Shown here in pieces: positions 1,001-30,626 of a stretch of 64,000 nt of DNA. Source of the DNA: a virus (taxonomy: Duplodnaviria > Caudoviricetes). Location of the stretch: the IMG/VR virus record IMGVR_UViG_3300037067_006336, positions 1 to 64,000 of that record, one strand, 5' to 3'. Positions within the stretch are counted from its first letter, which is position 1, and every line of letters begins with the position of its first letter. The notes under the pieces are model-generated. The model was given only the letters and a program-made list of their open reading frames with translations. It was not told the DNA's origin and ran no database searches. Both the position numbers and the translations under genes were made by a program.

Positions 1001-1075
1001 TTTTCAAATTTTAAATTTGCTAATTGTTTCCGGGGTTGGGTTGTATTTACCCGGTATGAATATGTTTACGTGCCT

Positions 1076-1089
1076 TATTGCCACCGTTA
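1076..1089. repeat. Right end of att-like element, family A (partial)
   Basis: TATTGCCACCGTTA is identical to 2146-2159. Confidence 0.7.
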
Positions 1090-1098
1090 GCCACAAGT

Positions 1099-1608
1099 TT
1101 AAGACCTGCGTTCATTCAGGCACTCTTCGACCACGTTTGAAACAGCTAATGCCATTTTTGACTTGAATATGGCATCCTGCTTTAATTCGTTTGAAACTTT
1201 ATCAAATAGCCCATCATTATTCGAAATGATATTACGAGCAACTTTATGAGAAAAAGCGTTAATGATTGAGTTTTTAAATTCATCGGTTCTAATTACCGTA
1301 TTGAAACTTTCAGAAATAAGTTGCTTTAAAAATGTCGTATTTTCAGAAACAACAGCTTCTACCAGTTTTTTCAATGGAGAACTGTAATCGGTTAAAACTT
1401 TCTGAATACTTTCATTCATTGCTATTTGAGCTGTTCTCAAAATATCTTGTTCCAACGTAATTGGAACGTGTTTTTTATCTGTTTTGGCATTAATTGTTTC
1501 AACCTGCAATTTCACATCTTCCCGGAACTTTGCATTTTCTGTTCTTAAATCTTGGACAGCTTTAAATAAGTTGTCGATTGTTTGTTGTTCTTTAGTTGTC
1601 ATAATCAT
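1099..1608 (-). CDS. Hypothetical protein (cassette 1)
   Basis: 169-aa ORF, AT-rich codons; stop ~10 nt from the TAAC core. Confidence 0.8.
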   Translation of the reverse strand: MIMTTKEQQTIDNLFKAVQDLRTENAKFREDVKLQVETINAKTDKKHVPITLEQDILRTAQIAMNESIQKVLTDYSSPLKKLVEAVVSENTTFLKQLISESFNTVIRTDEFKNSIINAFSHKVARNIISNNDGLFDKVSNELKQDAIFKSKMALAVSNVVEECLNERRS

Positions 1609-1641
1609 TTAATATTAAGGTGATTAATAAAAACCTGTGGC

Positions 1642-1761
1642 TAAAAGAATTAGATGTTCCTGGTGTTTTAAATGTATACATTAATAATTTATCGCTCATA
1701 ATTATAAAAAATACTTTAGTAATATAAAAATACCCGCAATGTTGCGGGTATTTAAGTGTTA
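1642..1761. repeat. Degenerate att-like element, family B
   Basis: End GCGGGTATTTAAGTGTTA (1744-1761) matches 2556-2573 at 17/18; left core decayed to TAAA; contains hairpin 1728-1753. Confidence 0.6.
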
Positions 1762-1795
1762 TGGGTAAGCATAAAACAGCCTACCCATTTCACAG

Positions 1796-2023
1796 TTAAT
1801 CTGGCATTTTAACTTTTTTGATATTGTCAATTTGCCACTTTTTAAACTCATTAAATCGCTCAACAATACCTTGTAAATGGTTGAAATGACATCCACCATG
1901 TACGCAATCTTTAAAATATCCTGCAATCGCTTCTACACTATGGTAGTCTTTTGCTGTTAAAACAAAGATTGGAATACCTTCGCGTTCTGAATCTTTGATA
2001 ATTTTTTCGTCTTTTGCTGTCAT
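1796..2023 (-). CDS. Hypothetical protein (cassette 2)
   Basis: 75-aa ORF with PIFVLTAKD...KMPD motif seen in small phage proteins. Confidence 0.75.
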   Translation of the reverse strand: MTAKDEKIIKDSEREGIPIFVLTAKDYHSVEAIAGYFKDCVHGGCHFNHLQGIVERFNEFKKWQIDNIKKVKMPD

Positions 2024-2074
2024 TGTTTTAATTTTAAATCGTTAATATATGATTGTTTAATAAATGCCTACCCA

Positions 2075-2159
2075 TAACACACAATATAAAAATTGGATAT
2101 CAGCGTTCGTGGTATTTTGAAAGGTCGGCACAAGCCAACTTTCCATATTGCCACCGTTA
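2075..2159. repeat. attC-like element (85 nt), family A
   Basis: TAAC-aca-CAATAT-aAAAATTGG...CCAACTTT-cc-ATATTG-ccacc-GTTA imperfect hairpin. Confidence 0.7.
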
Positions 2160-2513
2160 TCGGTAATGATTAAAAACGAGCAGCCGAGCCTTTTCTAAGT
2201 ATTCAGCAGCTGATTTTCTGACACCTTCCCTCCATTTATCTGAACGAAGATTAACGATAACTGTCTTTCCTGTGCTTGCTTCGTGCATAGGCATTGCATT
2301 TTTACGAGAATATACAGCTTCTAAAGCTGACTTTGCGAATTGCTCACGGTCATAATGTTCTTCTAAATCAACCTGACCAGCCCACATACCAGCTTCAAAA
2401 GCTAATTGTAAGGCTACGTCAACAATTTGAAGAAAATCACTACCGCTAACACACGCCTCACCCACAATGGTAGGCTGTGTAGGTGTTTGAAGTTGTTGTT
2501 CTCGTGCGTTCAT
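2157..2513 (-). CDS. Hypothetical protein (cassette 3); first 21 codons lie inside the att-like element
   Basis: 118-aa ORF; its stop is the TAA of the TAAC core; V22-S-G-S is encoded by GTTAGCGGTAGT. Confidence 0.75.
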   Translation of the reverse strand: MNAREQQLQTPTQPTIVGEACVSGSDFLQIVDVALQLAFEAGMWAGQVDLEEHYDREQFAKSALEAVYSRKNAMPMHEASTGKTVIVNLRSDKWREGVRKSAAEYLEKARLLVFNHYR

Positions 2514-2573
2514 TTGTGTTATTTTGAAAGTTATTTACTTGTAACCCCACCACTGGCGGGTATTTGAGTGTTA
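2447..2573. repeat. attC-like element (127 nt), family B
   Basis: TAAC...GTTA bounded; 2460-2474 pairs with 2546-2561 (G-T wobbles and one extrahelical C on the - strand). Confidence 0.7.
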
Positions 2574-2582
2574 ACAAACAGC

Positions 2583-2966
2583 TTAATTCGCTGCTTCGAA
2601 AAGTTCTGGGTTCTCGTAAATATTACCAAGAATTTCATATTTGAAATCTTTTAATTCTTGAAAAAGCGAATATGATATTGATTTGTCATTTTTGATACTG
2701 CAATCAAGCATCCACTGACCAAGCATTTCATCAAAATAAACTTGCATTGCGCTTTGAATCATCTTTCCGTCAACTTCTGTCCAATCTCCTATAATATCGC
2801 CATCATATATTTCTTTTTCATTCTTGTCCTTAAAAGGAGAAAGTTGAAGGGGAATTATATCTTCCGTGAAATCCCAATGTAAATGAGCAATATCAATTAA
2901 GGAATGTTCGTATGTCATTTTTTTGGTATGACACAACCAGAATTTAAATTTAATTTCTTGTTTCAT
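2583..2966 (-). CDS. YopX-family protein (cassette 4)
   Basis: EIKFKFW...KDKNEKEIYDGDI...EILGNIYENPELF signature. Confidence 0.9.
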   Translation of the reverse strand: MKQEIKFKFWLCHTKKMTYEHSLIDIAHLHWDFTEDIIPLQLSPFKDKNEKEIYDGDIIGDWTEVDGKMIQSAMQVYFDEMLGQWMLDCSIKNDKSISYSLFQELKDFKYEILGNIYENPELFEAAN

Positions 2967-3008
2967 AATTATTTGATATTTAATTTATTCGTGTAAAAGC
3001 CGATTTGT

Positions 3009-3133
3009 TAACACAGTATAGCGGTCAATAAGTGTTTTCGTGGTATCCTGAAATTTGCAGCCCGTAATAGCATCTTTGTAGCTCGACAGCGACACGCTCC
3101 GCATCCCTTACATGCCTCTATACTCGACCGTTG
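3009..3133. repeat. attC-like element (125 nt)
   Basis: TAAC-ac-AGTATAG...CTATACT-cgacc-GTTG; shares central TCGTGGTAT--TGAAA with the other elements. Confidence 0.65.
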
Positions 3134-3361
3134 TACGCTATTTAACAGACCAGCAGCTAACCCGTGGTATGGTTAATTGCCTTGTTAGTACTAAGTTTAA
3201 GCGTTACCACCCGCTTTTAATTCTGCGGAATTATTAACTAATTGGTTTGTGCCTCTACCATCTTTTCATCAACTTCCTTGAAATCTGCAATGGTGTTGAT
3301 GAAGAAATTTTCCCTATTATACATGATTTTTACTCCTTTCAATTTTGGTTTTAAAATGATG

Positions 3362-3413: not shown

Positions 3414-4076
3414 TTACAAGGTCTCGATAGTCTCGGTGATTTCCCTGGCGTTTTCAAGGATGTATGCTTTCAATGCATCCTTGTCATCACCGAATTTTAT
3501 CTTCGCCTCCGTGAATAACAAGATGCTTACACTGTATTTCTTGTTACCTACAAGGACAGGCATTTCCTTGTCCTTTATCTGGGAAGGTCGTGGTTTAAGG
3601 TAGGTTAACACGAAGGTTAACCGTTGGGCGGCTTCCGCCATTAAAAGCAAGTCATCAACTTGTTTTCGAAGCGTACCTTGTATATAGGTATGTTTATCCT
3701 CCTTGCGTTGGATCGCTTCCTCTTTCATCAAGTTTATGCACGTCTCTCGTGCTGCCTTGTTCTCCCAGTGTTTAGCAAGTAGCATTAAACCACCGGATGT
3801 TATGAAACCCTTTATACCAAGTTTCTTCAAACCTTCCTGGATCCTAGGTTCACGCGCAGCATTATACTGTGCCGTGTAGTTTCCTTCAATTGCCTCAAAA
3901 TCGTTATTCTCCAACCACTCGGCGCTGGAGAAATCCTTCCCCGTTAACACTTCCTTTACTTGTTCCAGGTCTGAACCGATAGTTTCAATACCTGGTACTT
4001 GGTTCATTGCTTCGTTCCCTACTTCATTTACATCTTCAAGACCTTGTCCTTCTAGTGTTTTTGCTACTTTTGTCAT
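3414..4076 (-). CDS. Hypothetical protein
   Basis: 220-aa ORF with A-rich leader. Confidence 0.8.
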   Translation of the reverse strand: MTKVAKTLEGQGLEDVNEVGNEAMNQVPGIETIGSDLEQVKEVLTGKDFSSAEWLENNDFEAIEGNYTAQYNAAREPRIQEGLKKLGIKGFITSGGLMLLAKHWENKAARETCINLMKEEAIQRKEDKHTYIQGTLRKQVDDLLLMAEAAQRLTFVLTYLKPRPSQIKDKEMPVLVGNKKYSVSILLFTEAKIKFGDDKDALKAYILENAREITETIETL

Positions 4077-4120: not shown

Positions 4121-4214
4121 ATTATATCCTGTATTTCATGAAATACCCGTGTCAAGGGTGTATTAAAATTACACCATCTCATGTAATCCTTGCAGTTACT
4201 GTGTTACATGAGAT
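4121..4214. promoter_or_regulatory. Palindrome/hairpin cluster upstream of 3414..4076
   Basis: Perfect palindrome GTATTTCATGAAATAC (4131-4146); inverted repeats 4157-4175 and 4176-4186/4204-4214. Confidence 0.5.
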
Positions 4215-4580
4215 CATGAAATGGCCACCGAACCACCCATGGTATGTTGGTTGACATCATGATATACCTGATATCTATGTGGTTTTATTGATCATGATCT
4301 CATGATATGTATACTGCTTTATTGGTCATGATGTACTAATATCTATATTGTTTGACTGCTCATGATTTACCGATATGCTTGATTGATCATGACGTACTGA
4401 TATGTTTGATTACTCATGATGTACTAATATCTATATTGTTTGATTACTCATGATGTAATGATATGTATACTGCTTGTTAGCTCATGATGTACTGGATATC
4501 CGTATTACTTGATTGATCATGATATGCTGTATATCCGTGTTGCTTGCTTGATCATGATGTACGATATACATGTTTACCAT
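4214..4580. repeat. Degenerate tandem array, unit ~34-35 bp, core TCATGATGTACT
   Basis: TCATGA at 4214, 4257, 4292, 4300, 4326, 4360, 4387, 4414, 4448, 4482, 4517, 4552. Confidence 0.85.
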
Positions 4581-26912: not shown

Positions 26913-28331
26913 TTACTCCCAGAACTTGAAGTTATTGGTGAGTTCATTTCGTTCTTTCAATGTTTCATCAAGTGTTTCATCTAGTCTTTTCAACCGTGAA
27001 TCTATCTTCTCCTTGGCCTCGGATCCAGTTTCAGAAATTTGTTGCAAGTTCTTCAAATCAGATATGGCATTCGATAATTCTTTTTCAGATTCAACCAGTG
27101 ATACTAGTTTTCTATCACGTTCGCCCACCATAACGATTTCTTTCTCGATCTGTGAGTCAAAGAATTTTGAGACGCCACAAGAATAATTAGACTTACCGTT
27201 TTTCAATATTGATTCTATGGTGTCACTCATGTTGGAGTACGTGTCGAATACCTGGTTGTAAGCCGATACATCGCTTGACCCGATTATCGTTGGTCTCATA
27301 TCAGGCTTACTATCCCTGTTATCAAGGATAACATATGATGATTCATTCATGTTCTTCAACACGTTTAGTTCATCACATGTAACCAGGTCATCAGAGTTCT
27401 TGCAAACGTTGATGAAGTTATCGGCTGCTTGAAGGTACTGGTACTTGTCGAAACCATCAACCATAGTAGGGTTAGACTCGTATGCTTGTACTGATTCTAA
27501 CAAGAGTTGCCTTGCATCATCAAGCGTTATCTGCTCGTTATTGATGCATATATCCCCGGATACAGCATCCAATGTTATGTTGAAATCCCATGAACCAGCA
27601 GGTGAGAACGTGTTACTAGTTACGTCGAATGCTGTTTGATTCAATGATTTCAAATTGTTCTTGATTTGTTCCGGTACCTCGGTTTCTTTCAACGCGGTGT
27701 ACTTCTTGGATGTCCTGTCATACTCCACGGCACATGATTCAAAGAATAACACGTACTTGTTATTCATGATGTCTTCTTTCCTCAAGGCAACAGGGGAATA
27801 GTTGATAATGTTGGCTGACTCGTTCAATGTCTTGATGTTCTTCGATGGTTCTTTCAACTCGAGTGCCTTCTTGACAGATACAAGCAAGTTGGATTTCAAC
27901 GAGTCGAATACACCAGCCTTTATCATTTCCTCTATCTCGGATCCTGGTTTGTTGAATGAATCCTTGAAGTCCTTTATGGTGGAGGATGGACTCGGGTGGT
28001 TAAGCCTGGTCAACGTGCTGAAGTGTTCTTCCTTGCACATGTTAATAAGGAAGTTCAAATCACCCCCCGCATCATCGACTGATTTCTTGCAGAAATTTAC
28101 AAGTTCTTTCAAGCTAACATCATCACCAGCCACTTTCTCCGCACCGGTTATGAAAGCGCGTAACTCCGTCATCGGGGTTTCCGACTCGTTCAATTTCTTG
28201 AGGTTCTCCCTCAGGTATTCCGACCCGCTCAACGTGCTGGCCTCTGTTTGTGATAACTTCTCGATTATGGTTGAAACAACAACCGGATACGAGTTATTAC
28301 CTACTAGTTTCTTTAAAAATTCCTTGTCCAT
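26913..28331 (-). CDS. Probable internal head/virion protein
   Basis: Late-promoter motif upstream; repeated L/M-N-E-S motifs. Confidence 0.55.
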   Translation of the reverse strand: MDKEFLKKLVGNNSYPVVVSTIIEKLSQTEASTLSGSEYLRENLKKLNESETPMTELRAFITGAEKVAGDDVSLKELVNFCKKSVDDAGGDLNFLINMCKEEHFSTLTRLNHPSPSSTIKDFKDSFNKPGSEIEEMIKAGVFDSLKSNLLVSVKKALELKEPSKNIKTLNESANIINYSPVALRKEDIMNNKYVLFFESCAVEYDRTSKKYTALKETEVPEQIKNNLKSLNQTAFDVTSNTFSPAGSWDFNITLDAVSGDICINNEQITLDDARQLLLESVQAYESNPTMVDGFDKYQYLQAADNFINVCKNSDDLVTCDELNVLKNMNESSYVILDNRDSKPDMRPTIIGSSDVSAYNQVFDTYSNMSDTIESILKNGKSNYSCGVSKFFDSQIEKEIVMVGERDRKLVSLVESEKELSNAISDLKNLQQISETGSEAKEKIDSRLKRLDETLDETLKERNELTNNFKFWE

Positions 28332-28348
28332 GATGAGAAATATTTATG

Positions 28349-29617
28349 TTATTTACGTGACCTAGATATCACGTTCAATGGTTTAATGCCGTTAAGGAAG
28401 TTCATCGCGTCCGTTTCATCGATTTCATCCTTGTCGTATATGTACCTGAGCAAGGGTTTCACGATGGTGGATATGAACATCCTGAGTAAATCTGGTTTCG
28501 GTAGGTTCTTTACATCTTTCAACGATACATCATCCGGCACACCTATGACCTTTATACCTGATGACGGGTCACAGTAATAGTAATTCATCTTCTGGCCCTC
28601 GAAAGGTTTCTTGTACTCCGATTCAAGCTTGTTATCCCTTATGAAGTTGAACCACGAAACCGCGACTTGTGCTTGTATGTGTGTCCCAGGTATGATGTAC
28701 TTGTTGCTAACAGGGTCTATGGTTACCGCTTTCAGCCCGGACACGCTGCTTATGTTGTAGAATACATCCTTCTCGCTAGTTGTCCTGACGTGCTGGAATA
28801 TCTTCAAGCACTCGGTACGTAACATATCGGATGTGTAGTTGTTAAACAGGTACTTGTCGATCAATACGCTTAGAATTTTCTTCGCCCTGGGTGACATTCC
28901 TCCCCTCTTCATCTCCACCCCCTTGAATTTTAACTTGGGTACAGGTAACAGTTTACCGTTGTTGTAAATTACCACCATGACGTAATTTTTCTTGGCCCTG
29001 AATATGGTTTTACGGGTCGTTACCTCGTGTGCCATCCTCATGTAACCCTTGCGCATGTTACGCTTGTCACACTCTTCCTCGATGGTTGTCTTGATGATGC
29101 CGTTTATGAATTCCTTCATCATGAAGCAGGAGAAATCAACAAGTTCCTCGTCGGATGCAGGTAATGTCATCCCCATCAAGTTGTAAATCCTCTCCAGGTC
29201 GATGTACCTTGAATCGGTATCACCGTAAAGGCATATATCATCCCTCGTACCAGGCTTATAAGGGAGTTTGTCCAACTTCTCGATGCCGGGGTAAAACCTG
29301 CGTAACACTACTAGTTCGTGTTCGTCCCACGATGCGAACAACCTGTTTATGTTTTTATCGATCAGAACAAGGAAGTGTTTCCCGAGGATAGTTATATCTT
29401 CCGCCACGTCAAAATCACACAATGAGAAGTATATCGAGGCAGACGTACCGTAAAGGGAATTACAATTACGTTTGACTACCTGCTCCAGGTTGTTGTACTC
29501 GTTGAAGACACCATCGACCTCAGCAGATAACTTTTCCAACTCTTCATCAGAAATTGTCGAGATGTCTATTGATTCGAACTTGTTCTTGAAATTATTATAA
29601 TTATCCAGGAAATTCAT
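28349..29617 (-). CDS. gp43B: Family-B DNA polymerase, C-terminal subunit
   Basis: Motif B KRNCNSLYG, motif C YGDTDS, KKNY, KGVE. Confidence 0.9.
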   Translation of the reverse strand: MNFLDNYNNFKNKFESIDISTISDEELEKLSAEVDGVFNEYNNLEQVVKRNCNSLYGTSASIYFSLCDFDVAEDITILGKHFLVLIDKNINRLFASWDEHELVVLRRFYPGIEKLDKLPYKPGTRDDICLYGDTDSRYIDLERIYNLMGMTLPASDEELVDFSCFMMKEFINGIIKTTIEEECDKRNMRKGYMRMAHEVTTRKTIFRAKKNYVMVVIYNNGKLLPVPKLKFKGVEMKRGGMSPRAKKILSVLIDKYLFNNYTSDMLRTECLKIFQHVRTTSEKDVFYNISSVSGLKAVTIDPVSNKYIIPGTHIQAQVAVSWFNFIRDNKLESEYKKPFEGQKMNYYYCDPSSGIKVIGVPDDVSLKDVKNLPKPDLLRMFISTIVKPLLRYIYDKDEIDETDAMNFLNGIKPLNVISRSRK

Positions 29618-29687: not shown

Positions 29688-30626
29688 TTACAATTTATAC
29701 TCTGCAAGGTCCATGTTATCAAGGGTTGTTGATAACGTTCCATCATCCTGCATGGTATTGATAGAGATGTTGTGACTATCTGACATGGAGAATAAACAGT
29801 ACATTCTACCGTTTACTGCATCCGTGACGAACCTCCCTATATTATCATTATCCCAGTAGAAATCGAACGAGTGTACGCCACAAACAAGAAGGTCAGCCTT
29901 CGTGATATTGAACTTCGTCATGTGTTCTTCCTTCAAATCGGTAACACATTTAACATCTATATCGAACACCTTGTCGAATGCCCTGATTGATTGATCCTTT
30001 GCCTCGAATGATAGCAATGGGCTGTTATTGGCGATTGATTTATGAAGGTCTTTTACCAGGTTAAGTATCTCGGACATGGTTCCTTTCTCGATGATAGCCT
30101 TGGACATGTTATCCCGTGGTGTCATCTCTGCCAATAATTCATCGTAATCATCGATCACGTTTGTTGACATCTCGTCTTCAGCCAGGGTGAACGACGTGAT
30201 TAGTGGTGAACCTGCCTTCGAGTGCCCGCTTATCTTCATACTGTTAGCCTGGAATCCATCTTTAGATTTTCCATCAACGATGGAGAACTCCAGGTTGATC
30301 AGGTCATTCCCGAAAACCCCCAGGAATTTCCTCAATGCCTGACCGTTCAAGAAGTAAACATCGAAAGGTTCGAAATCGAACACCGGTTTTACAGGTTCCG
30401 AGTCAAGATCTATTACCCCGCTACCCGTTAACGGTTCTTTCAACGCGATGAACTTGTCAAGGTCTACCTCGATGTACTTGGTTAGTGTCTTGGCGGTGGT
30501 CTGGCTTATACACTTGATATTACCCTTGCTGAAGTTAAGCAGGATGTGGTTATCAACGATTAATGATTCCCGGAGGATATCAAGTAACATCCCCAGTCTG
30601 AAATTCTCGATTTTAACGTTATTCAT
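29688..30626 (-). CDS. Putative sliding clamp (gp45/PCNA-like)
   Basis: Size, position between the polymerase halves, clamp-like N-terminal pattern. Confidence 0.5.
   Translation of the reverse strand: MNNVKIENFRLGMLLDILRESLIVDNHILLNFSKGNIKCISQTTAKTLTKYIEVDLDKFIALKEPLTGSGVIDLDSEPVKPVFDFEPFDVYFLNGQALRKFLGVFGNDLINLEFSIVDGKSKDGFQANSMKISGHSKAGSPLITSFTLAEDEMSTNVIDDYDELLAEMTPRDNMSKAIIEKGTMSEILNLVKDLHKSIANNSPLLSFEAKDQSIRAFDKVFDIDVKCVTDLKEEHMTKFNITKADLLVCGVHSFDFYWDNDNIGRFVTDAVNGRMYCLFSMSDSHNISINTMQDDGTLSTTLDNMDLAEYKL

Follow-up and report, generated by a model that had tools for sequence, protein, structure and literature searches.

The stretch of DNA that we analysed (the window, 64,000 nt) belongs to a phage genome of 162 kb, and within its positions 1086-3133 lie four co-oriented minus-strand genes that encode proteins of 75-169 aa. 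Each gene is flanked by GTTA-X and X'-TAAC, where X and X' pair over 14-17 nt at each of the four cassettes, and the spacers between units measure about 85, 127, 120 and 125 nt from TAAC to GTTA. G+C makes up 32-35% of the block, against about 45% genome-wide, and the stop codons of the array genes fall 0-35 nt from the TAAC core. A preliminary description, made from the sequence alone, had reported four complementary end pairs, spacers of 85-127 nt, stop codons in or near the TAAC core and an AT-rich block; our measurements agree on each point, and all four end pairs were found in place. The features of the array are as follows.

3160-3222, minus strand: half element (3' half, ending in GGTTA), at the upstream edge of the array
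3008-3133, minus strand: spacer of the YopX cassette, 125 nt, CAAC...GTTA; a weak family member
2570-3012, minus strand: cassette 1; GTTA (3012-3009) plus X, and X' plus TAAC (2573-2570)
2583-2966, minus strand: gene of cassette 1, 127 aa; Pfam YopX (1.1e-11)
2446-2573, minus strand: canonical element of cassette 2, a 128-nt attC-like hairpin; 79.6 bits with covariance model R1
2156-2450, minus strand: cassette 2, encoding an unknown protein; GTTA (2450-2447) plus X, and X' plus TAAC (2159-2156)
2074-2159, minus strand: short spacer variant, 86 nt, TAAC-GGTGG-CAATAT...ATATTG-TGT-GTTA
1758-2078, minus strand: cassette 3; GTTA (2078-2075) plus X, and X' plus TAAC (1761-1758)
1796-2023, minus strand: gene of cassette 3, 75 aa, unknown, with one distant relative elsewhere
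1642-1761, minus strand: degenerate spacer, 120 nt, ending in TTTA, not GTTA
1086-1645, minus strand: cassette 4; TTTA (1645-1642) plus X, and X' plus TAAC (1089-1086)
1099-1608, minus strand: gene of cassette 4, 169 aa, from a widespread phage family
1068-1085, minus strand: truncated spacer start, GGTGGCAATAAGG..., at the downstream end of the array

The ends of cassette 3 (1756-1772 / 2064-2080) pair at 16 of 17 positions, the sole mismatch being a G.T at position 11, and of all inverted repeats spaced 100-1000 nt apart in the 162-kb genome theirs is the longest. Cassette 2 (2156-2171 / 2435-2450) has 14 of 16 positions paired, plus a G.T at position 11, and cassette 4 (1087-1100 / 1631-1644) has 13 of 14. 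For cassette 1, whose ends are GTTAACAAATCGGCTT / AAGCTGTTTGTTAAC (2570-2584 / 2997-3012), a 9-nt pair at 2570/3004 had been described; the position was right but the length was not, as the pairing extends to 15 nt, with a G.T at position 11 and a single bulged T. The core at the upstream junction of cassette 4 reads TAAA on the plus strand in place of TAAC. The cassette 2 reading frame (2157-2513) starts within the hairpin element, and the start of a homologue in L220 (60% amino acid identity) likewise lies within an element matched by R1.

The 162-kb genome contains about 50 inverted repeats that span 14 nt with one mismatch or none, and we estimate an expectation of ~0.4 17-mers per genome, so that the inverted repeats of the window are only marginally beyond chance. 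The window alone is therefore not decisive, and the case rests on comparison with other DNA.

Spacer elements in the window

Plain inverted-repeat scans were too noisy in AT-rich DNA, with reversed-sequence controls yielding at least as many hits, and we therefore used an anchored alignment and the covariance model R1 instead. The element at 2446-2573, which was among the 11 training sequences of R1, is the only strong match to the model in the 162-kb genome. The spacer at 3008-3133 scores 19.6 bits (E 0.22) and begins with CAACGGTCGAGTATAG, as other family members do. Neither the short spacer (2074-2159) nor the degenerate spacer (1642-1761) was detected by R1; the latter contains an intrinsic-terminator hairpin at 1728-1753.

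The first 14 nt of the short spacer are repeated at 1076-1089, and the truncated spacer start is a direct repeat of 2138-2159 (86% identity; family D11), TAACGGTGGCAATA occurring in the genome only at these two sites, 1068-1085 and 2138-2159. The motifs shared by the spacers are confined to 1068-3133 and occur nowhere else in the genome. At the opposite edge, the half element at 3160-3222, about 24 nt from the next element, matches, with 92% identity over 65 nt, an element of the huge phage LR756500.1; the full element there has a 13-bp stem when folded and reaches 68.6 bits with R1. The array thus ends in a half element on one side and a truncated start on the other, and no distinct attI-like site was identified there. 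The preliminary description had counted three clear hairpins and one degenerate one; only one of the four is fully canonical, so that part of the array in the window may be decaying.

Copies of one cassette in unrelated contexts

At least 10 contigs from viruses and metagenomes (including L080, L081, L126-L128, L130, L133, L134 and L138) carry the cassette of gene 1099-1608, with 85-97% identity. These copies have identical ends and at least 10 unrelated downstream contexts. Downstream similarity always stops at X'-TAAC, with different sequence directly after it in every case, and upstream homology stops in 7 contigs at TAAC/G, beyond a spacer of ~128 nt. G1 matches the window at 89.6% nucleotide identity over exactly 1086-1644, and G1 and G2 have only spacer and cassette in common. 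From the homology breaks at X'-TAAC and TAAC/G we infer that the mobile unit is the spacer plus the gene, with the crossover in the TAAC core (G/TTA on the plus strand of the window). The preliminary description had read the complementary ends as marks of discrete mobile units, had placed the crossover at G/TT and had proposed looking for breakpoints there in relatives; the breaks fall exactly on the TAAC core, in keeping with all three. The copy of gene 1099-1608 in the window lacks the upstream spacer that goes with it in seven other contexts and has a TTTA core, so at least one event at this locus broke the simple rule.

Homologues of one gene carry at least six different X/X' pairs, every one of them self-complementary, and L135/L136 show a compensatory double change in the pair. 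Cassette ends that do not match were seen elsewhere in two cases, G3 27992-28375 and L148. There are also copies of gene 1099-1608, 85-91% identical, without any cassette ends (L131, L132 and L137), and the two bacterial copies that were found both lack them. We found no cassette common to a phage and a bacterial array, no relatives in IMG/VR of the neighbouring 220-aa gene (3414-4076), and no match among cultured phage records (tblastn with gene 1099-1608; blastn with the G3 array).

A conserved hairpin with a fixed wobble pair

The spacers belong to a conserved family of hairpins of ~127 nt with the bounds TAAC...GTTA. In the stem of 12 pairs, pairing is found in 92% of cells versus 58% in shuffles, 271 cells carry double changes versus 75 in shuffles, and controls with the stem slid gave 32-47% paired. 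The suggestion that the TAAC...GTT elements fold is accordingly well supported: the hairpins are conserved and covary strongly. Between cassettes, spacer identity is only about 56%. The paired cassette ends extend 11-15 bp beyond the core, and 59 of 62 cassettes, of phage, metagenome and bacterial origin, have a G.T wobble at position 11, at a distance of 11 nt from the core, often adjoined by a bulge or a T.T. These G.T pairs are restricted to one strand of the elements.

The site precedes the gene in 16/16 phage units and 8/8 metagenome units, whereas all 21 bacterial units have the canonical order, gene then site, opposite to that of the phage cassettes. In this respect the likeness to integron cassettes drawn in the preliminary description fails, as the phage hairpin element lies upstream of its gene. 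The G.T is kept on the element strand in 25/25 bacterial cassettes, where the genes are on the other strand; the wobble goes with the strand of the element and not with that of the mRNA.

Bacterial arrays and the recombinase

A scan with R1, a check of the kind proposed in the preliminary description, found the elements beyond the window in 100 of 151 sampled Bacteroidia genomes, arranged in arrays. In four of the five bacterial genomes checked, the end of the array adjoins a gene for an Xer/IntI-like tyrosine recombinase of 369-399 aa, co-oriented with the cassettes; L218:9173-10285 is one example. These enzymes score 213-233 bits on the XerA/integron-integrase model and 206-208 bits on TIGR02249 (integron integrase), for which the cut-off is 265; about 50 positions of the TIGR02249 model, the IntI-specific region among them, are unmatched. 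The enzyme beside the arrays is therefore not a canonical integron integrase, a point on which the integron-like reading of the preliminary description needs correcting. None of 10 sampled bacterial cassette proteins matched a family named as an immunity protein.

A tyrosine recombinase had been expected elsewhere in the phage or in the host. The first of these places receives no support, since PF00589 (tyrosine recombinase) has no match in the 162-kb phage genome, nor in eight other array-bearing phage records (nine with this phage). Because the same elements lie beside an Xer/IntI-like enzyme in Bacteroidia, "elsewhere" points towards the host. That the phage array is served by a recombinase of the host family is an inference from bacterial adjacency only, and no activity was observed.

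A probable orphan array of an integron-like system

We believe, with a probability of roughly 75%, that the block represents an orphan array, made up of cassettes for site-specific recombination and part of an integron-like system of Bacteroidia and phages; no recombinase activity, circle or empty site was observed. Phages and hosts seem to share a gene-swapping system of this type that the phage alone could not run. On the minus strand, a unit would consist of C-[hairpin element, archetype ~127 nt]-GTTA-X-[5'UTR, gene]-X'-TAA, with units joined head to tail at the TAAC core. A recombinase of the family described above, from the host or a co-infecting phage, would excise a unit as a circle, in which X'-TAAC-element-GTTA-X could fold on a single DNA strand into a long hairpin, and the unit would re-insert into a resident element, at its TAAC core. 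The logic would be that of attC x attC or attC x attI recombination, in which the bottom strand of attC takes part and is cleaved at AA/C, and the complementary ends of a gene unit would be the trace of its circular form.

Several observations count against the simple model: the non-matching ends of two cassettes elsewhere, the close copies of gene 1099-1608 without cassette ends, the lack of a cassette common to phage and bacterial arrays, and the state of the spacers in the window, three of which are weak, short or degenerate.

A further proposal, on which we are evenly divided, is that Bacteroidota phages of unrelated types (here one of 162 kb, others of 37-40 kb, and a huge phage of 462 kb) keep their own cassette pool within the Xer-type system of the host. 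Each gene would sit behind a folded site of ~127 nt, in the orientation opposite to that in the host, and would be exchanged between phage genomes by the recombinase of the infected cell.

Comparison with known systems and alternative explanations

The rAID-1 (recombinase-associated acquired interbacterial defence) clusters of Bacteroidales, present in 226/423 genomes, are defined, in the parts of the publications available to us, by an XerD-like tyrosine recombinase at the 5' end of the array with >44% identity to BF9343_RS08045, at least two co-oriented short low-G+C genes, conserved repetitive intergenic sequences and orphan immunity cargo (Ross et al. 2019, bioRxiv 10.1101/471110; PMC12247911). 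As far as those parts describe it, the bacterial arrays with the element family of the window, in 100/151 genomes sampled here, match this layout, although identity of their recombinases or repeats with rAID-1 proper is not established. The window meets the gene criterion, with four co-oriented short low-G+C genes; its intergenic sequences comprise one canonical element and three variants, and the published motifs were not compared. It differs in being phage DNA without a recombinase, in its cargo (YopX, a widespread phage family and two unknown proteins, not immunity genes), and in the opposite orientation of its genes relative to the element. The available text of the rAID-1 papers yielded no site structure, crossover point or phage link (bioRxiv 10.1101/471110; PMC12247911).

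Sedentary chromosomal integrons with long, uniform attC sites share with the present system one-gene cassettes and imperfect-palindrome sites with ...AAC/GTT... cores, by which the elements qualify as attC-type sites. Also in common are a crossover in the core, strand-specific folding, complementary cassette ends derived from one site of the circular form and, in the bacterial arrays, a neighbouring tyrosine recombinase of the Xer/IntI clade. We take the element length to resemble that of Vibrio repeats. It could thus be argued that the block is a fragment of a canonical integron, with true attC sites served by a classical IntI. Clusters of attC sites without an integrase (CALINs) have been reported in 17 phages, partly virulent and including a phage of the Bacteroidota host Polaribacter, and their sites, called by canonical attC models, are recombined by IntI1 (Qi et al. 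2023, PMC9892861). The window resembles them as a row of cassette-like genes with hairpin sites in a phage without an integrase, and its crossover polarity agrees with the attC bottom strand; whether canonical models call the present elements, or IntI1 recombines them, is not established. We nevertheless regard this explanation as unlikely. The array-adjacent recombinases fall below the integron-integrase cut-off, leave the IntI-specific middle segment unmatched and are co-oriented with the cassettes, and in the phages the order of gene then attC is not met. The elements are present in two thirds of the sampled Bacteroidia genomes, and classical integrons are far rarer among genomes than that. 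Finally, we know of no attC sites in which pairing reaches 11-15 bp past the core and includes a fixed G.T, here often adjoined by a bulge or T.T.

We give less credence to regulatory cassettes of the PeSL type, in which terminator/promoter spacers would be shuffled by homologous recombination and the complementary ends would be incidental. PeSLs are promoter-terminator cassettes in hyperplastic regions of T4-like phages, where they mediate indels and mini-circles (Arbiol et al. 2010, PMC2839356; Comeau et al. 2014, PMC4122927). The small accessory genes, the short structured intergenic motifs and the implied gene shuffling are similar, and the window offers one good intrinsic terminator (1728-1753) and TATA-rich stretches directly 5' of GTTA. 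However, promoter-like sites are at background (20 found, 16.5 expected), and a sigma-70-type early promoter with a stem-loop terminator, recurring across the hyperplastic regions of a genome, which defines PeSLs, is not seen, as the shared motifs are limited to the block. PeSLs recombine through conserved promoter and terminator sequences, whereas the spacers here are divergent, their identity of about 56% being too little for homologous exchange, and yet the breakpoints fall within a 4-nt core. Homologous recombination would predict neither covarying, complementary unit ends nor a fixed G.T, and the same elements adjoin a tyrosine recombinase in bacteria.

Less probable again is a device acting at the RNA level, with stems and hairpins in the transcript serving RNase III-type processing or 5'-3' end protection, and apparent mobility reflecting selection for intact transcription units. 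It would account for the phage stem mismatches, all of which are G.U on the sense strand, and for spacer folds that are more stable on that strand in 12 of 17 cases. It does not account for the bacterial arrays, where genes lie on the opposite strand in all units and the mRNA would have C.A mismatches in place of the G.T, nor for breakpoints exactly at TAAC in at least 10 contexts, and no Rfam family matches the elements, leaving a ribozyme or small RNA reading unsupported. A secondary function in phage RNA, for instance in termination or processing, remains possible. The reading as inverted repeats that flank four small genes by chance is refuted by the same end architecture, with its wobble at one position, in 62 cassettes and by unit boundaries that coincide with homology breakpoints.

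Several other candidates were set aside. A genome-wide phage promoter based on the motif TTTCAAAATACCACGAA was rejected because the motif is found only in this block; the 76 exact matches to it in IMG/VR fall within unrelated coding sequence and are consistent with chance. A transposon duplicating TA or TTAA was rejected because end sequences differ between cassettes, and an IS200/IS605-type element because each end of such an element has a hairpin of its own, whereas here the two ends pair with each other. Xer pdif modules have sites of 28 bp, and those described here exceed 80 nt.

Implications for possible gene exchange in Bacteroidota phages

Gene capture through the recombination of single-strand hairpins has its textbook case in the integrons, which have been tied to a single enzyme family, IntI. 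The system described here appears to run parallel to them, with an Xer-like recombinase, and to our knowledge the only published form of it is the "integron-like" immunity arrays described in gut Bacteroidales. Its site can now be described by a TAAC core, a covarying hairpin of ~127 nt, paired cassette ends and a fixed G.T wobble, and a site so defined offers a concrete substrate for biochemistry. How cassettes are born is an open question for integrons, and matched cassette and non-cassette copies of one gene are material for its study. If phages do maintain their own pool, the gene 1099-1608 family, with close homologues both with and without cassette ends, may make cassette birth directly observable. 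The system reaches phage genomes of very different sizes, without a recombinase, which suggests that phages of one host phylum may trade accessory genes singly by such a route.

The cassette block of the phage

The source contig of this T4-like phage is 162,117 nt long, and the window is its first 64 kb. Positions 161968-162117 repeat positions 1-150 with one mismatch over 150 nt, which shows the 162-kb assembly to be circular or terminally redundant; the record lists it as linear and 73% complete despite the overlap. Within 1086-3133 lie four minus-strand genes, each preceded on the gene strand by GTTA and an end (X), and followed by a complementary end (X') and TAAC. We refer to this unit as a cassette, and to the hairpin between cassettes as the spacer, or element; R1 is our covariance model of the spacer.

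Features of the cassette block
1099-1608, minus strand, cassette 4 gene (ORF)
1642-1761, minus strand, degenerate spacer with terminator hairpin (fold, terminator scan)
1796-2023, minus strand, cassette 3 gene (ORF)
2074-2159, minus strand, short variant spacer (fold)
2157-2513, minus strand, cassette 2 gene (ORF)
2446-2573, minus strand, strong spacer member, the only strong one in the window (R1)
2583-2966, minus strand, YopX family gene (Pfam, 1.1e-11)
3008-3133, minus strand, weak spacer member (R1)

G+C content is 32-35% in the block and ~45% elsewhere in the genome, and the motifs common to the spacers are locally unusual, occurring nowhere else in the 162 kb. The genome has ~50 inverted repeats of 14 nt with a single mismatch at a spacing of 100-1000 nt; the longest inverted repeat at that spacing is the 17-nt pair flanking 1796-2023, and by our estimate one such pair genome-wide is not improbable. 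When the window is taken alone, the array is not shown to exceed chance. A tandem array with TCATGA cores and a 34-35-nt period (4214-4580) directly adjoins the block.

The mobile unit and its breakpoints

Many relatives were found for gene 1099-1608. In nine contig loci (L080, L081, L126-L128, L130, L133, L134 and L138; 85-97% amino acid identity) the same cassette ends are kept, and the sequence past X'-TAAC differs in each. By blastn, the alignment of the window with another phage genome, G1, spans exactly 1086-1644, and G1 and a third, otherwise unrelated phage genome, G2, have only 696 nt in common, namely a spacer and this cassette. Upstream, homology in seven contexts runs through the ~128-nt spacer and stops at TAAC|G. 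From these breaks we infer that the conserved unit is the spacer plus the gene, cut at the TAAC core on both sides; they fall in G|TTA on the window's plus strand, in agreement with the G/TT crossover proposed in the preliminary description.

More distant homologues of this gene have X/X' pairs of at least six different kinds, all of them self-complementary, and L135 and L136 carry a compensatory double change relative to the common type. Pairing is thus maintained rather than accidentally inherited. There are exceptions: the window copy of the gene differs in its upstream spacer and has TTTA as its core, and two cassettes elsewhere have mismatched ends. Three metagenome contigs (L131, L132 and L137) hold copies at 85-91% amino acid identity without GTTA-X or X'-TAAC; their similarity to the cassette form begins ~30 nt before the ATG and ends at the stop codon, making them candidate before/after pairs for cassette origin or decay.

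The spacer element

The archetypal spacer is 125-131 nt long; it opens with TAAC-G-N4 and the first stem arm, continues with an A-rich interior of ~70 nt, and closes with the second arm, 2-3 nt and GTTA. RNAalifold gave a stem of 12 pairs, 11 of them with compensatory changes. As the preliminary description had suggested, we built a covariance model from the elements: R1, made from 11 copies, finds 72 across the DNA set analysed, nearly all full length. In the R1 alignment 92% of stem cells are paired, versus 58% in shuffles and 32-47% with the partner slid, and double changes number 271 versus 75 in shuffles; because the alignment was fitted to R1, pairing is somewhat inflated. At one position of the stem, 50 of 65 sequences have a G.U pair. 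An Rfam search of the elements matched no family.

The ATG of ORF 2157-2513 lies in the apical part of an element, and the frame continues across the stem arm, GTTA and X (2447-2513). A homologue in L220 (60% identity) is arranged likewise and lacks any internal Met, so this start looks real; the first ~25 residues of the product are not conserved. At 3134-3163 only ~24 nt (GTTAGCTGCTGGTCTGTTAAATAGCGTACAAC) separate a half element from the next element; this gap may represent a vacant cassette position or a docking site of the array.

Paired ends and a fixed wobble

We paired the ends of 62 cassettes, counting from the G of GTTA. A single mismatch falls at position 11 in 59 of them, with G in the arm after the element and T in the arm before TAAC; position 10 holds either a regular pair, a T.T or a bulge of one base. 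All four window cassettes meet the position-11 pattern (that of gene 1099-1608 by reading the arms). For the YopX cassette it bears out the pairing noted earlier and extends it to 15 nt, the 9 nt first given being too short.

At the 3' end of cassette 3 (1775-1795) a second copy of X (ATGGGTAGGC) lies 8 nt before X', giving X' a second possible partner in a short local hairpin. Phage genome G3 has the mirror arrangement, with local mini-hairpins of the form X'-TAAC-loop-GTTA-X at ~27,540-27,600 and ~30,075-30,105.

Arrays in other phages and in bacteria

Complete phages of 37-40 kb have regular arrays of the same architecture, with at least 10 cassettes in G3 and others in G2, L112, L118 and L121; the 462-kb phage LR756500.1 likewise bears an array. 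Just upstream of the G3 array (complete 38.8-kb phage; L108:1232-7564) are encoded an Erf-like annealing protein, an SSB, a primase-helicase, a helicase and a small endonuclease/resolvase-like protein. All belong to single-stranded DNA metabolism and could be relevant to hairpin-based exchange.

We sampled 151 genomes of the class to which a Sphingobacterium MAG belongs; R1 found matches in 100 of them, the elements being exactly 127 nt and in arrays. Of these genomes, G098 (locus L215) is unpublished; it contributes only two cassettes to our tallies, and no claim depends on it. Within the bacterial arrays, all 21 of 21 units have their gene on the other strand from the element, which gives the integron order of gene followed by site. 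Genes of phage (16/16) and metagenome (8/8) arrays share the strand of the element, so that the site precedes its gene. The G.T wobble follows the element strand in both groups and is therefore not an mRNA feature; it is consistent with folding of a single DNA strand whose polarity matches the attC bottom strand (5'-AA|C ... GTT-3').

The recombinase

A tyrosine recombinase of 369-399 aa adjoins the array end in four of five bacterial genomes examined, and has the same orientation as the cassette genes in both of the arrays that were read completely. It scores 213-233 bits on the NCBIfam XerA/integron-integrase model, 206-208 bits on the integron-integrase model (cut-off 265), with the IntI-specific middle segment skipped, and about 175-190 bits on XerC/D. 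At L218:9173-10285 and L217:1074-2183, ~95 N-terminal residues precede the SAM-like and catalytic domains and matched none of the families searched. We identify the bacterial arrays with rAID-1, the recombinase-associated interbacterial defence clusters of Bacteroidales, on layout only, without sequence comparison with a reference protein.

Our literature search turned up no paper connecting rAID-type sites with phages or describing the structure of these sites. CALINs, attC clusters without an integrase, have been documented in phages (PMC9892861). Among phages, the closest precedent for shuffling through intergenic motifs is the PeSL elements (promoter-terminator cassettes) of T4-like phages (PMC2839356, PMC4122927), which, in contrast, work by homology.

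The preliminary description had placed the recombinase elsewhere in the phage or in its host. Our search for PF00589 gave no match in the 162-kb genome, in G1-G3, in four further array-bearing viral contigs or in LR756500.1, several of these records being rated complete, and we infer that the recombinase is supplied to the phages in trans.
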